Source of the DNA: a virus
DNA: 64,000 bases
IMG/VR virus record: IMGVR_UViG_3300047440_000809
Location: 32,001 to 96,000 of that record
Reading direction: 5' to 3' (one strand)
Part shown: piece after piece, positions 21,933 through 60,413 of the stretch
Position numbering within the stretch: the first letter of the stretch is position 1
Layout: each line of letters opens with the position of its first letter
Program-made: the position numbers and the translations under genes
Notes under the pieces: model-generated
What the model saw: only the letters and a program-made list of their open reading frames with translations
Databases searched by the model: none
What the model was told of the DNA's origin: nothing

Positions 21933-22393
21933 CCATCACCGCCGATACGACGACAGGCGAGCTGGAGAGAGTGTTTGCATACCTCCGGTGCCCCTTCCGC
22001 GTCATCCCGCGCCGTCTGAGCGGAGGCGGCTTCACCTTCATCATCCAGGTGCAGGTGCCGGGCGGTAGCGCCACGTTCTCCAACGCCTCGTTCGCGGCGG
22101 CGCTCGACAGCTCCATCGCTTTCATGACGTTGCAGAAGCACGAGCGGGTCGCCACAGCCACCGCTGACCCGGAGGGCGCGCGCGTCGGCCCGGCGCCGAT
22201 GCCCGATCCCACACGGGTTGGCTACGCGACCGCCCCCGCCCACTGCGCGGCGTGCGGGCACGGGGAGGACTCGGGCACGAGCTACAACCCGCTCGAACCG
22301 TGCATCAACTGCGGCGCCTCCACGCCGTGCACGTTGCCGAACGGCCACGAGGACGGCCAGCACAGGGTGCATGAGGAAGAGGCCGTACAGTGA
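21929..22393 (+). CDS. Hypothetical protein with CxxC pairs
   Basis: CAAC, CINC. Confidence 0.5.
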   Translation: MTITADTTTGELERVFAYLRCPFRVIPRRLSGGGFTFIIQVQVPGGSATFSNASFAAALDSSIAFMTLQKHERVATATADPEGARVGPAPMPDPTRVGYATAPAHCAACGHGEDSGTSYNPLEPCINCGASTPCTLPNGHEDGQHRVHEEEAVQ

Positions 22394-55326: not shown

Positions 55327-57626
55327 ATGAGCCAGAAAACGAAGCCGGTCAAGAGGGGCGGAAACGATACGGCCTCGGGCGGCCCACCCAGCGCCGACCA
55401 CGTCTACGGTATCAAGCGCGATCGGGGCCGCACAGGCTTCGGCAGCGGTCTTGTCCCGCCCGCTGCCGTCAAGCTCACCAAGGCCCAGCTCGACGAGCTG
55501 AAGCGCCTGGCGAACGGACCGCAGCACTCGTACGGGAAGGGACGCGTGCGCGTCCACAACAACCTGCGCCGCCACGGGCTCGCGATGATCGGGCACTCCG
55601 ACGGCTTCATGTGTTGGATCACGCAGGCGGGGCGGGACTTCCTCGCGAAGGCGGCGCGATGAGCTGCCCCGCGACGTTCATGACTCGGAAGGGCACGGCG
55701 CTTCGTTGTCAGTCCTCAGCGACTGGAGGTGCCGAGCACGCTCCCGCGCCTTACTTTCCACACGCCAGGCACTACGCCCACTCCGCCGAACACGCCGGCA
55801 CGGTCGCGTGGGACGGGCTGTGGGGCTATGAGGACCCCCAGCTCCACACGCACGTCGCGACGCTCTGCACGGCCGCGTGCACGCCAGAGAAGCACATCGG
55901 CGGTGCAACGGCACCGGGGCTAGACCCTCCGGCTGATCGTGCCCGCCAGCTCCTACGCGACACCATCGACGTCGAGGACAAGGCCGTGGTCGAGGGCGCC
56001 GCCATGCTCGCCGCCGGGCACGGCGTACGGTTCGTCTTCACGGTGCGGAACGGTGTGCACGTGGACGTGCGGGCGGAGCGCGTCGACTACGACGCGAAGG
56101 GAAGGATTCGATGAAGACCATCTACAAGTACGCAGCACCGATCGACGACGATCTGACCATCATGATGCCCGCAGCCGCCGAGGTGCTCTGCGTGCAGCTA
56201 CAAGGTGCCGGTCCGCAAATCTGGGCGCTGGTCGACCCGAGCGCGCCTCACGAGTTGCGGCGCTTTCACTGGCGTGGCACCGGGCATCCCGCCGATGGGC
56301 TCGGCCGCTACGTCGGCACGGTGCAGGGGGCAGGCGGCGCGCTCATCTTCCATCTGTTCGAGAGGAGAATCGGATGACCTCGCCCTCCAAATACTTTGCG
56401 CCGCAGGCGCCGGTGTCCGAAGACGAAGACGTCACCATCGAAGCACTCCAGCGCGCTGGCATCGTCAGCAGCGCCCCGACGCTTGCCAAGCCCGCTGGCA
56501 GCTCCCCCGCCCTGCGCATCGCCTGCCCGGTGTGCGCCGCGCCGCCCGGCGCCTACTGCATGAAGGGGCACGGCAAGATCCAGGTGATCGCCCACAAGCG
56601 TCGACGCGAGATGGAGGAGGCAACCCGTGGCACGTAAGGCCCCGAAGCTCCCCGTCTTCGGCGCAACAGCCAAGCCGGGGCTCGTCGTCATCGTCGGTGG
56701 CGCCGGCTACAACTTCGGCTGCGGGACCTGCGGACGGCGCTGGGATATGCCCTATGGTGGCTACGCCGTGGGCTTCGTGAAGGCGGCTGCGAATACGCAC
56801 ACCTGGCGATGCGCTCGGCTGACCCCGCAGGAGCGCCGCAAGCAGAACGCTCGGGATGAGCGTCGGTGGGCAAAGACGCCGCCCAAGAACGCAACGGTCT
56901 ACAACATGCCTGACCACCCGGGGCTACGCGAATGACGAAGCATCTCGACGTCGCCGGCACCACGTACAACGACATCGTCACCTGGCGCTGGGAGCGCTCG
57001 CGCATGCGCTGGGTGTCGACCCTGAGCGACGGCACTGAGCTGGTGGTTGCGCTCCAGCGCTTCGGCCGACGGTCGTTCTGGAACCCGTCGGTCAACGGCA
57101 AGGCGCTACCGAACAACGGGTTCCACGATCCCGAGGCGGCACAGCACGCCGCATTCGTAGCGTGGCAGACCCGCGTTCCGGTGAAGCTTGCCGACATCGC
57201 TTCCAAGATCCGCGCGCACCTCAAACGGTTCGAGGCCGACCCCAAGATCAACACCAAGCGCCGTGGCCTATCTCGCTACTACGGTGCAGGCGCACACGCC
57301 AGCGGCGCTCGTGTCGGCATGCGGTACATCGCGTTCCAGGGCGTTACCTACGTGTCCAAGGCCGACGCACTTCGATACCTGGCGTGGCTCGACGCAGGCA
57401 ACGTGGGTCGGCACTTCGAGGCGCTGCGCGAATGACCTCTCGCAGGCGTCCGAAGCTTCCCCACGGCTACTGCCCGCGCTGCTTTCGGTGGATCGCGCTC
57501 GTCGTTCCCGCAGGCGGTGACGGGTCAATCCTGGTCTTCCGCACGCACGTGGGGAAGGTCGCACCGCCGGTAACGCTTCCGAGGAGGTGTGACGGGTCGC
57601 GCATGGAAGGGACACCGACGCGATGA
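55327..57626 (+). CDS. Operon of seven small phage-type hypothetical proteins (55327, 55659, 56111, 56374, 56627, 56932, 57432)
   Basis: Successive overlapping starts/stops; several CxxC motifs. Confidence 0.55.
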
Positions 57627-57676
57627 GCTGGTTCAACTACAGCAAGCCCCAGAGGACGCAATGATGAAAGGACCAC

Positions 57677-58615
57677 ATGAAAGCTAAGAAGACCGATCGT
57701 ACTGCTGCACGCACACTGGACACGGCTGTCGAAGCTCTTGGGAACCAACCCTCGAAAGCGACTGTGCGCCGTGCGCTTGGAAAGCCCATAGACGGTCCGC
57801 CCACAGCGGGCCGTCCCGGTGCGGGGGGAAAGACACGTGAGCGCACCACGATCCAGATCGCGCTACCACGTTTTGGCGTCGTGCCGCTGTACGTAACAGG
57901 TCAGCTCGGCTCACCGTTGATCATGCATCGGTGGGGCAAGAAGGCGATCCGCGAGATGTTGGGAAAGCACATGGGGCACGACATCCCGCAGGCTGACAAG
58001 CAGCCGTTCGAGGACTTCGTGGACACGCTCTATCGTGAGCCGAAGACGGGCGAGATGGCTGTGCGCTCGGTCATGTTCAAGGCTGCGATGCTCGCCGCGC
58101 TTCGTGAAACGCCGGGCGTGACACGCGCTGATGCTATCACCGGCATTTCGATTCTCGGCGAGCTTTCTCCCATCTATGGGCAACCGACCAACCGATTGGA
58201 CCCAGTGAAGATCGGTCCGTGGGATGCACGGGTATCCGATCTCCGCTTCCGTGGCGAATACGCCGACTGGCTGGCCGTGCTCACGTTCCGTTACAACACG
58301 GCGGCGATTTCACTGACCGCGATTCACAACCTGCTGGCGACCGCAGGTGCACTCTATGGCGTCGGCGAGTGGCGCCCGACGCGCAACGGTGTGAACGGGC
58401 TTTTCTCTGTTGTTGAGAAGACCGAAGCCGAGAAGCTGATGAAGCGGCTCGGGCGCTGGAAGGTGGCTAATTTAACACCGGAAAATACCGGTACGATGGC
58501 GATTCTGGAAGAGTACGGTCTCGATGCCGCCACACTGGCCAAGCTCAAGACTGCCCCTCGATCCACAGTCGACCCCGCGAACGGGGGCGCAAACGGCACG
58601 AGCATTCACCCGTGA
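57677..58615 (+). CDS. Stand-alone RAMP/Cas7-like protein
   Basis: VTG..GSPLIMH first strand, FKAAM helix, DLRFRGEYADW.A.L, Gly-rich loop AG..YGVGEWRP.RNGVNGLF. Confidence 0.7.
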   Translation: MKAKKTDRTAARTLDTAVEALGNQPSKATVRRALGKPIDGPPTAGRPGAGGKTRERTTIQIALPRFGVVPLYVTGQLGSPLIMHRWGKKAIREMLGKHMGHDIPQADKQPFEDFVDTLYREPKTGEMAVRSVMFKAAMLAALRETPGVTRADAITGISILGELSPIYGQPTNRLDPVKIGPWDARVSDLRFRGEYADWLAVLTFRYNTAAISLTAIHNLLATAGALYGVGEWRPTRNGVNGLFSVVEKTEAEKLMKRLGRWKVANLTPENTGTMAILEEYGLDAATLAKLKTAPRSTVDPANGGANGTSIHP

Positions 58616-59112
58616 GGGGCACCGAGCTGCTGGTGGCAAAGAAGTACCGCTGGAAATCTGGGTTCCGGCTGCGCGGCAACCCTGCACTTGTCGGACAACG
58701 CATCGAGCAGATCACGCAGCGAAGAGGCCGCTGCACCCGGGAGGACATCTACACAGACGCGCGGCAACGCGCGTCGCCCTTCCGTGCAGATCTGTATTCG
58801 AAGACGACCGATGCCATGATTCGCGAATGGCGATTGGAAAAAGCGAGTGAGATCCTCCGCGCAATTCAAGTGGTGGAGATCGAAATGGTCGGAGGTGCCG
58901 AGACAGAAGTTGCAGCCCCACTTGTGTCGTTCATCCCTGAACGCGAGTACATGTTGACGACGCGCGTACTACACGACGTCGACCTGAGAAAGGAGCGGTT
59001 GGCGCAGATTGTTCGCGAGCTGGAGACATTTCGCTACAAGTTGCACGGCTTCAAGCTGCTCGTGGCGATGATCGATCGTGTGATTGCACGGGCGAAGAAG
59101 CTGAAGAAGTAG
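58612..59112 (+). CDS. Putative partner of the RAMP-like gene
   Basis: GTGA overlap; YRWK.G...VG..IEQI...AR..ASPF...WRLEKA..ILRAI.V...EL..FRYK. Confidence 0.7.
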   Translation: MRGTELLVAKKYRWKSGFRLRGNPALVGQRIEQITQRRGRCTREDIYTDARQRASPFRADLYSKTTDAMIREWRLEKASEILRAIQVVEIEMVGGAETEVAAPLVSFIPEREYMLTTRVLHDVDLRKERLAQIVRELETFRYKLHGFKLLVAMIDRVIARAKKLKK

Positions 59113-59118
59113 TTCTGT

Positions 59119-59401
59119 GGCAGGCAGGGATCGGCGTCCAAGGAACGGCATTGTGCTGTGCAGGTATAAAGCGGACCGGTTCGATTCGGCAGGCACGGCA
59201 GAATCCGGATCGATCGCATCGGGTGCAATCGGGAATGGAAGAGGTAGTTCACATGGAGCGGCAGGCAGGTTCCGGCACGGTCGTCACCTGTGTGCGTTCG
59301 TAGTAGGGAAGAGTGCGGGATGGAGCGGCAGGCTTGGCAGTGCAGTGTTCGTACATGGCGCGGATCGGTGGCTGATCAGGTACGGTCCGGTTTTGGCCGG
59401 A
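59119..59401 (+). ncRNA. Array of four 67-72 nt units made of GG-NNN pentamers; candidate guide-RNA array
   Basis: GGCAGGC at 59119, 59188, 59260, 59327 and GGCCGGA at 59395; 5-nt GG periodicity inside units. Confidence 0.65.
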
Positions 59402-59476
59402 TAAATCACGCGGGGCGTCCAGCGCGACATCTGGGCGCAACTTTCATCGAAGAGAACCGCAAATGAGACCCAACAG

Positions 59477-60196
59477 ATGACCGCCCTCCAACGCAAGCGC
59501 AAGAAGCGTGCGGTCCTCCAGACCGACGACCTGAAGCGCATCAGGCAAGCCGCCAAGGAGATCGGCCCGCGCGAGCACGCCCTCATCGAGTGGCTCTACA
59601 CGAACGGTGCCCGCGCCTCCGAGCCCGGTCTCGCCCGCCTCGATGACCTCGACCTCCACAACGGCACCGTGATGCTCACGCACCTCAAGGGCGGGCTCGC
59701 CGCGGAGCCGGTGCCGCTGTCGAAGACGTGCCTCGCGGCGCTCAAGAAGTGGCTGCCCCTCCACGCGAACGGCAAGTCGGCGGCCGCCATCCACTACGTG
59801 TTCCCCGGCGAGCGCCCCATCGCCTGCTACCCCTGCGGCGGCACGAAGGTCGTCGTCGAGAAGCGGCGCAAGGGCCCCGGCGGGCTGCCGCTCACCACGT
59901 CCGTCCCCTGTCCCCACTGCCACGCGACCGGGACCCGCTGGGGCATCACGCGGCACGAGGTTAGACGGATCATCTCGACCGTGTTCACGCACGCCGGCAT
60001 CCCCAAGGAGTTTCACTTCGCCCACGTGCTCCGGCACTCGGCCGTCACGCACATGCTCGACGACGGCGCGTCCCCCGCTGCCATCCAGGAGCGCGTGGGG
60101 CACAAGGCACTAGCCACGACGTTCGGGTACGTGCACACGACCAAGAAGGCGCGCGCGATGGTGTCCAAGACGTTCGACGAGGAGGACGAGACGTGA
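59477..60196 (+). CDS. Tyrosine recombinase/integrase with Zn-ribbon insertion
   Basis: GARASE (R), HVLRH, VGH, TTFGY; CYPC...CPHC insert. Confidence 0.9.
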   Translation: MTALQRKRKKRAVLQTDDLKRIRQAAKEIGPREHALIEWLYTNGARASEPGLARLDDLDLHNGTVMLTHLKGGLAAEPVPLSKTCLAALKKWLPLHANGKSAAAIHYVFPGERPIACYPCGGTKVVVEKRRKGPGGLPLTTSVPCPHCHATGTRWGITRHEVRRIISTVFTHAGIPKEFHFAHVLRHSAVTHMLDDGASPAAIQERVGHKALATTFGYVHTTKKARAMVSKTFDEEDET

Positions 60197-60413
60197 CGAC
60201 CGAGACTGCGACTGTTCCCTGCGAGACCTGCGGCACGCCGACACCGATGCTCGGCACCAAGCGCTGCACCAACTGCTGGGAGGTCGAGAAGCGCCTGCTC
60301 GAATACCTACGCAGCATCAATGGACGCAAGTTCGTACGCAAGTGCTACGCGCGGCGCCGGGTAGCACCGGGCGTGCGGGCAAACATCGACAACCCGGAAG
60401 AGGGAGACTGAAC

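Follow-up and report, generated by a model that had tools for sequence, protein, structure and literature searches.

Gene content of the locus

At 57677-59401 of the window, by which we mean the whole 64,000-nt stretch of DNA analysed here, a gene for a 312-aa protein, a gene for a 166-aa protein and a periodic stretch follow one another on the same strand. We call them vipr, vap-like gene and vrRNA array after the system to which we assign them below, VIPR (Viral Interference Programmable Repeat). The virus genome from which the window comes is a single contig of 104,563 nt. The array begins 6 nt past the stop of the vap-like gene (59112) and ends short of a tyrosine recombinase gene whose start is at 59477; all of them lie on the + strand. 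The features and their coordinates are collected in Table 1.

Table 1. Features of the proposed VIPR locus and its 3' neighbour (positions in the window)
Feature	Position	Strand	Basis or remark
vipr, 312 aa	57677-58615	+	Stand-alone Cas7-like RAMP, as predicted by structure match and profile homology
vap-like accessory gene, 166 aa	58612-59112	+	Start overlaps vipr stop by 4 nt; from the list of open reading frames
Putative vrRNA (guide) array, four staggered units	59119-59394	+	GG lag-5 periodicity, pentamer parse, position 3' of vap
Array units	59119-59187, 59188-59259, 59260-59326, 59327-59394	+	69, 72, 67 and 68 nt
Junction 1, GGCAGGC	59119-59125	+	GGCA unit of 4 nt, which shifts the phase by -1
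Junction 2, GGCAGGC	59188-59194	+	Heptamer match
Junction 3, GGCAGGC	59260-59266	+	ATGGAGC directly before
Junction 4, GGCAGGC	59327-59333	+	ATGGAGC directly before
Short hairpin, TCCGG / 6-nt loop / CCGGA	59386-59401	+	Read from the sequence
Tyrosine recombinase, 239 aa	59477-60196	+	Begins 76 nt 3' of the array

The two genes upstream of the array differ in base composition from their surroundings. The GC content at third codon positions is 0.69 in vipr and 0.71 in the vap-like gene, against 0.94 in the recombinase gene and about 0.85 in the long open reading frames of the genome, and the vipr-vap module looks compositionally foreign or weakly adapted. A blastn search with 57600-60300 found no match among GenBank phages. 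DNA contigs from four soil or rhizosphere sequencing runs match the window identically wherever they cover 57600-59500 and so show no variation. Several studies of soil and rhizosphere contributed metagenomes with such identical contigs, and the virus thus appears to be widespread in soil. No RNA run was among those listed as containing this DNA.

A five-nucleotide GG periodicity delimited by GGCAGGC

The 283-nt stretch at 59119-59401 contains 43 GG dinucleotides, 15 of which have a partner at a lag of 5 nt, compared with 6.2±2.2 in dinucleotide-preserving shuffles (n=2000; z 3.9, P 0.0005). Pairs at lag 10 number 12 (z 2.6), while lags 2, 3 and 7 as well as GGG are depleted. When all 283-nt segments on both strands of the 104,563-nt genome are compared, the stretch ranks first for lag-5 GG, the genome mean being 1.9 pairs per segment (sd 1.9). 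At the 70-nt scale comparable local lag-5 counts are found elsewhere in the genome, and the signal stands out only across the whole array. The strand is rich in G (40%, with C at 21%).

The sequence-only reading of this DNA had described four units delimited by GGCAGGC, and this description held on every point that could be checked against the sequence. The four heptamers lie at the positions listed in Table 1, the related GGCCGGA at 59395 closes the fourth unit, and the unit lengths are as it gave them. The periodicity exceeds both of the controls that it had proposed, shuffled sequence and the rest of the genome. Its hand count of 30 GG starts in 49 pentamers is close to that of our automatic Viterbi parse, in which 28 of the 45 in-phase pentamers (62%) start with GG, and the 14-nt ATGGAGCGGCAGGC indeed occurs in exact copies at 59253 and 59320. 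It had also foreseen that standard repeat finders would miss the array, which proved correct for Tandem Repeats Finder, where nothing was reported at the array.

The heptamer GGCAGGC occurs 20 times on the + strand of the 104,563-nt genome. Four of these copies fall within 215 nt where 0.04 would be expected (Poisson P ~1e-7, or ~1e-4 after genome-wide correction). In terms of pentamers, GGCAGGC can be read as GGCAG, the last G of which also opens the next frame, so that consecutive units overlap by 1 nt. Between junctions each unit spans 13-14 pentamer equivalents, and the units have in common only a junction element of 7-14 nt.

Searches for other RNA elements were negative. ARAGORN found no tRNA or tmRNA; Rfam gave no relevant family, and no hammerhead, either in this part of the window or in four relatives; and a promoter and terminator scan found no consensus near the array. 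The short hairpin at the 3' end may tentatively be taken to mark where the array stops; it was not called by the terminator scan, and there is no U-tract after it. About 10 kb before the start of the window, at 22001-22303 of the virus record, lies another stretch, rich in GGG, with 22-23 GG pairs at lag 10 and almost none at lag 5.

A stand-alone RAMP protein related to the Vipr of phage SUSP1

Sequence profile and predicted structure identify the product of the 312-aa gene as a RAMP-fold homologue of Vipr. It consists of a core of ~190 aa with clade-specific extensions of ~60 aa at the N-terminus and ~60 aa at the C-terminus, and its AF2 model has a pLDDT of 83.9. In a comparison of the model with the full PDB, all of the top 23 matches were CRISPR RAMPs; the best was Csm3 (9g9a_D; Z 10.8, rmsd 3.7 over 150 aa), and the top 19, which are Csm3, Cmr4 and Cas7 chains, had Z values from 10.8 to 8.0. 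Foldseek likewise returned a Cas7-type RAMP as best match (E 4e-6). The G-loop reads GVGEWRP...G..G.F.

Homology to the Vipr of Escherichia phage SUSP1 was detected by aligning the family profile with that protein in hhalign (probability 96.9%, E 2e-10, 163 columns), and one relative, locus L070, matches SUSP1 by tblastn. In SUSP1 each Vipr protomer takes up one pentamer; the first guanine is held by H17 and D177, the second by R138 and W178, and the pyrimidine at the third position occupies a narrow pocket to which C173 and R179 contribute, C173 lining the pocket so that purines are excluded (10.64898/2026.04.26.720927). Substitution of D177 or R138 by alanine abolishes silencing by SUSP1 Vipr (2026 VIPR preprints). 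The residues H84, R192, E231, W232 and R233 of the window protein align with H17, R138, D177, W178 and R179 of SUSP1, and they vary little or not at all among 56 sequences.

The only family match of the protein is phrog_4652; Pfam, NCBIfam and PADLOC gave none. When vipr, the vap-like gene and the recombinase gene were screened, none of the three matched a cas family in PADLOC or NCBIfam. A large protein collection holds 12 homologues of 37-85% identity. The two extensions (residues 1-60 and 250-312) are common to the homologues P0002-P0012, which are about 48-85% identical to the window protein, and are absent from P0013 (37% identical) and from the IMG/VR relatives, which have the ~190-aa core.

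Weak but consistent homologues of the vap-like protein (19-34% identity) are encoded directly 3' of vipr in 24 IMG/VR loci; an IMG/VR search with this protein alone found no relative. It matches phrog_15946 and has no Pfam family. Its AF2 model (pLDDT 91) predicts an alpha/beta N-terminal part and a C-terminal helix of 43 residues; because of this long helix a fold search with the whole model gave only coiled-coil matches (Z at most 5), with no informative PDB match. No similarity to vap1 of SUSP1 was found (hhalign probability 0.1). The family motif SPLH..FEWDD..AA..YRL.QAR.LIR is strongly diverged in the window copy. The recombinase downstream carries, at residues ~111-153, a CxxC...CxxC zinc-ribbon-like insertion with a weak match to DnaJ_CXXCXGXG.

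Vipr genes and GG arrays are linked in relatives

More distant relatives of Vipr are encoded at 477 IMG/VR loci, and we scanned 80 of these for arrays of GG pairs at lag 5. A + strand array lies within 1.5 kb downstream of vipr in 67 of the 80, and in three more it begins before the end of the vipr match; most of the remaining loci are cut by a contig end. Over the 80 loci, 94 arrays (25.8 kb) lie on the + strand and 9 (1.0 kb) on the - strand. A further locus scan retrieved one distant locus from metagenomes and none from genome contigs.

The arrays of the relatives are far cleaner than that of the window; in one of them (L071), for example, 48 of 61 GG have a partner at lag 5. The consensus of 2629 pentamers from 34 arrays of relatives has G at 94% in the first position, G at 85% in the second and a pyrimidine at 89% in the third, with positions 4 and 5 near-uniform. 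GGYAGGY junctions number 249 in 50 of the relatives' arrays, and 43 arrays have at least two. The dominant phase slip is GGC-A-GGC, that is, the same delimiter as in the window. Spacing between junctions is mostly 45-59 nt and equals 4 modulo 5 in 143 of about 200 cases, and the typical unit in the relatives examined has 9-11 pentamers. Long arrays of 0.75-1.2 kb were also seen (L023 4565-5312 and 5907-7143, L071 2829-3674, L077 5136-5898), and such very long or doubled arrays imply dozens of guides in some relatives.

Two of the relatives are cultured actinophages in which the order of the parts differs. Gordonia phage UmaThurman (NC_031249.1) has the order vipr, array, vap, with gp39 as Vipr, gp40 as the array and gp41 as the vap homologue; in Mycobacterium phage Donkeykong (NC_051648.1) the order is array, vipr, vap (gp48, gp49 and gp50). 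Both arrays, UmaThurman gp40 (L082 3571-3894) and Donkeykong gp48 (L081 2480-2866), consist of GGY-NN pentamers with GGCAGGC junctions and are annotated as 'hypothetical protein'; the comparison shows these annotated genes to be guide arrays. That gene and array order are permuted in these phages argues for a functional module.

Assignment to VIPR and comparison with known systems

[quoted passage not shown] The same preprint describes 'staggered arrays', whose consecutive vrRNAs overlap by 1 nt, each one starting where the previous one ends (legend to its fig. S18); by its text these are absent from the architectures confirmed by small-RNA sequencing (10.64898/2026.04.26.720920). The SUSP1 system has been used against the recombinase of a satellite, with a footprint down to six units (10.64898/2026.10.15.759431).

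On the basis of the observed periodicity, the predicted RAMP fold, the homology to SUSP1 Vipr, in which the guanine contacts are kept, and the conserved link between gene and array, we identify 57677-59401 as a VIPR locus, with a probability of roughly 85%. The array is of the staggered type with a relaxed repeat, in which 62% of pentamers have GG and the third base is 'not G' rather than a pyrimidine. It is thus a new and unusually degenerate example of the published kind and not a new kind. With staggered VIPR arrays the window shares a lone Cas7-like Vipr, a small accessory gene and 5-nt units on the same strand, in which GG has fixed positions, positions 4-5 vary and the guides abut with a one-base overlap; further shared features are the viral element, a unit size inside the 9-16 repeats and the lack of a detectable self-target, which the preprint also reports for its systems (10.64898/2026.04.26.720920). 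It differs from published staggered arrays in being far more degenerate (38% GGY pentamers and no run of four or more units), in its third position, in its units of 13-14 pentamers compared with the 9-11 typical of the relatives, and in a Vipr of 312 aa with extensions at both ends as opposed to ~195 aa.

The Type II VIPR of Escherichia phage SUSP1 (KT454805.2) has the same order of vipr, vap and downstream array as the window, and its Vipr has the same H, R and (D/E)WR guanine contacts. Its vrRNAs, however, are separate units of ~100 nt with individual leaders and conserved 3' tails that contain a pseudoknot, whereas the window has slip junctions and no tails; its vap1 is unrelated in sequence to the window vap; and the pocket residue is C in SUSP1 and Y in the window. 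The backbone of Class 1 CRISPR complexes (Cas7, Csm3 or Cmr4 on crRNA) resembles Vipr in its RAMP fold with G-loop and thumb, gives the best structural match, and like VIPR has each protomer bind a set number of guide nucleotides, with bases flipped out at regular intervals. In contrast to CRISPR, there is no repeat-spacer array and no adjacent cas gene here, the period is 5 and not 6, and a VIPR guide is, according to the preprints, a set of gapped dinucleotides and not a contiguous spacer. TRAP on trp leader RNA offers an analogy only: there too a protein oligomer reads a short motif every ~5 nt with variable spacers, but the fold is unrelated, the oligomer is a closed ring, the spacers carry no information and DNA is not recognized.

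Following the mechanism proposed in the 2026 preprints, the array would be transcribed together with or after vipr and vap, and the transcript would be split at GGCA|GGC into four RNAs of ~67-72 nt, or 13-14 pentamer equivalents. Vipr protomers would then coat each RNA, one per pentamer, each flipping out and holding positions 1-3 (GG and the third base) and presenting positions 4-5. The presented dinucleotides would pair with double-stranded DNA read as NN-x-NN-x, the skipped base usually being the wobble position of a codon, and the bound filament would silence transcription of a rival mobile element. The sequence-only reading had likewise proposed a non-CRISPR array of four guides, each of about 12-13 pentamers and delimited at GGCA|GGC, and this proposal gains support from the Vipr homologue with its predicted RAMP fold and from the GGC-A-GGC delimiters of the relatives. 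For the window we infer that the array is transcribed, that its junctions are processed, that filaments assemble on so weak a repeat and that a target exists; cleavage at GGCA|GGC in particular, and the use of all four units as guides, are presumed.

Under this identification, the VIPR class, known only since 2026, gains a locus from a large, high-GC soil virus. The general picture of VIPR stays as it was. The cultured phages UmaThurman and Donkeykong could serve bench study of staggered arrays.

Other readings of the array

The stretch might instead be a protein-coding gene, the 95-aa open reading frame at 59117-59404, to which we give almost no credence. The frame is open and the equivalent stretches of UmaThurman (gp40) and Donkeykong (gp48) are annotated as coding sequences, but these 'genes' are themselves GGY-NN arrays. 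Conservation of this frame as a protein in relatives had been named as a check by the sequence-only reading; among 5.8 billion proteins the 95-aa product has no homologue even at E 10, where vipr has its 12, and it matches no Pfam or PHROG family. The periodicity is 5 and not 3, and GC content by codon position is flat (0.61/0.62/0.57), compared with 0.85 at the third position in the genome. A DNA-level array of sites for the downstream tyrosine recombinase, such as attP arms or sites for the recombinase or a partition protein, is also very improbable. It would account for the recombinase gene starting only 76 nt away and for four evenly spaced heptamers, and a phasing of 5/10 bp would be compatible with a DNA-bending protein. 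Against it stand the strand asymmetry (G 40%, C 21%) together with the same-strand linkage to vipr, seen in ~70 of 80 loci independently of any recombinase, the presence of the same motif in arrays of up to 1.2 kb beside vipr, and the recombinase itself, in which no match to an arm-binding domain was found.

Several further candidates were rejected. A CRISPR array would have direct repeats of ~23-50 nt with unique spacers, and here the shared element is only the 7-14 nt junction. A type III toxin-antitoxin RNA (ToxI-like) does not fit units that are alike only at their junctions, beside genes for a RAMP and a helical protein and with no PADLOC match. A G-quadruplex former, a protein sponge of the CsrA or TRAP type, a terminase or partition site and integron or attP sites were all dropped given the linkage of gene and array and the published preprints.

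Search for targets

Candidate targets were sought with the gapped dinucleotides of the units; a natural target would be expected to match these at 80% or more under the one-base skip rule. In the virus's own genome the best site scores 17 of 24, which is at noise level under all four skip rules. Exact scans of IMG/VR with two 10-dinucleotide parts of unit 2 gave no match for one part and a single match for the other. This match (L084 1043-1071, 21 of 24) lies in an open reading frame of 142 aa of no known family, where it spells WYLIRARRDG; it was rejected as a target and is probably due to chance, since the contig is that of an AT-rich phage with a mismatched composition and the family is not a known one. 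The full 12-dinucleotide pattern of unit 2 has no exact match in 185,579 species genomes, and a target search in all retrieved loci gave nothing new. As to composition, the dinucleotides at positions 4-5 are fitted best by 'antisense to codon positions 1-2', with a gain of 10.3 bits over the dinucleotide background of the genome. This composition and the C bias at position 5 weakly suggest guides antisense to high-GC genes, as the skip rule predicts.

Decay or a relaxed repeat code

The window array is the weakest of 51 that we compared, with GG in 62% and GGY in 38% of pentamers as opposed to 66-92% and 43-89% in the others. Its third base is T in 42%, A in 27%, C in 24% and G in 7% of pentamers, and its fifth base is C in 49%. 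Internal phase slips are present in each of the four units, and they may reflect either decay, as the sequence-only reading had suggested, or part of a relaxed repeat code. The longest run of YNNGG or NNNGG has three units. As the published repeat search requires at least four tandem YNNGG units (10.64898/2026.04.26.720920), it would miss this array; that preprint also lists NNNGG, YNNNG and NNNNG variants and frequent internal degeneracy, and accepts degenerate arrays that were found otherwise (10.64898/2026.04.26.720920). The junctions, on the other hand, are intact at all 28 of their bases, while the interior G positions have G in 76%, so that under equal decay the chance of intact junctions would be 0.76^28, or ~5e-4. 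This argues for a tighter constraint on the junctions than on the interior, which speaks against purely neutral decay.

The locus could be a decaying relic, that is, a VIPR locus whose array is no longer a working guide set after mutations and small indels eroded the GG registers. We consider this rather unlikely. The lowest GG and GGY occupancy of the 51 arrays, slips inside every unit, the lack of any run of four or more units and the empty target searches all point in this direction, and the third-position GC of vipr and vap, low compared with that of the recombinase, is compatible with recent acquisition or weak selection. Yet vipr and vap are intact, all the guanine-contact residues are kept, the four junction heptamers are perfect, and metagenomes from several studies carry the identical sequence. 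Moreover, published systems work with footprints of six units (10.64898/2026.10.15.759431), and the internal degeneracy described in the preprint is itself frequent. As a possible but hardly probable alternative, the Vipr clade of the window may read GG followed by 'not G' (GGH), its pyrimidine-pocket residue having changed, and the array would then be a working one of the NNNGG type, which is among the published variants. The pocket-lining C173 of SUSP1 aligns with Y227 of the window clade. In 30 of the 32 rows listed for relatives V, I, C or T stands at this site and pyrimidines make up 79-100% of third bases; the exceptions are L064, with N (A 41% and Y 50% at position 3), and the window, with Y and the mixed third base given above. 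These are only two independent cases for a link between residue and third base, the mapping of the residue depends on a profile alignment at 23% identity, and a variant code leaves the 38% of pentamers without GG unexplained despite the conserved guanine contacts.

A more specific and decidedly speculative version, which we think improbable, is that this Tyr-pocket clade with its added N- and C-terminal domains assembles on a 'GG-not-G' repeat in which ~60% of pentamers have GG, the GGCAGGC junctions, as the only strictly kept element, serving as signals for nucleation or processing. In that case vrRNA arrays could work with far less periodicity than the published search rule requires, many of them would escape repeat-based detection, and the pocket residue would be a predictable switch of third-base specificity. 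The window array is among the most degenerate seen beside an intact Vipr and so provides a test case for the repeat regularity that Vipr filaments need, and it hints at a link between pocket residue and third-base specificity, in two cases only.

The array of L064 (5264-6401) is ~1.1 kb long, with A as a frequent third base (41%) and a junction that reads GGCAGCA and not GGCAGGC. The Vipr encoded beside it has a divergent G-loop segment, FTNGLGEWRQ.
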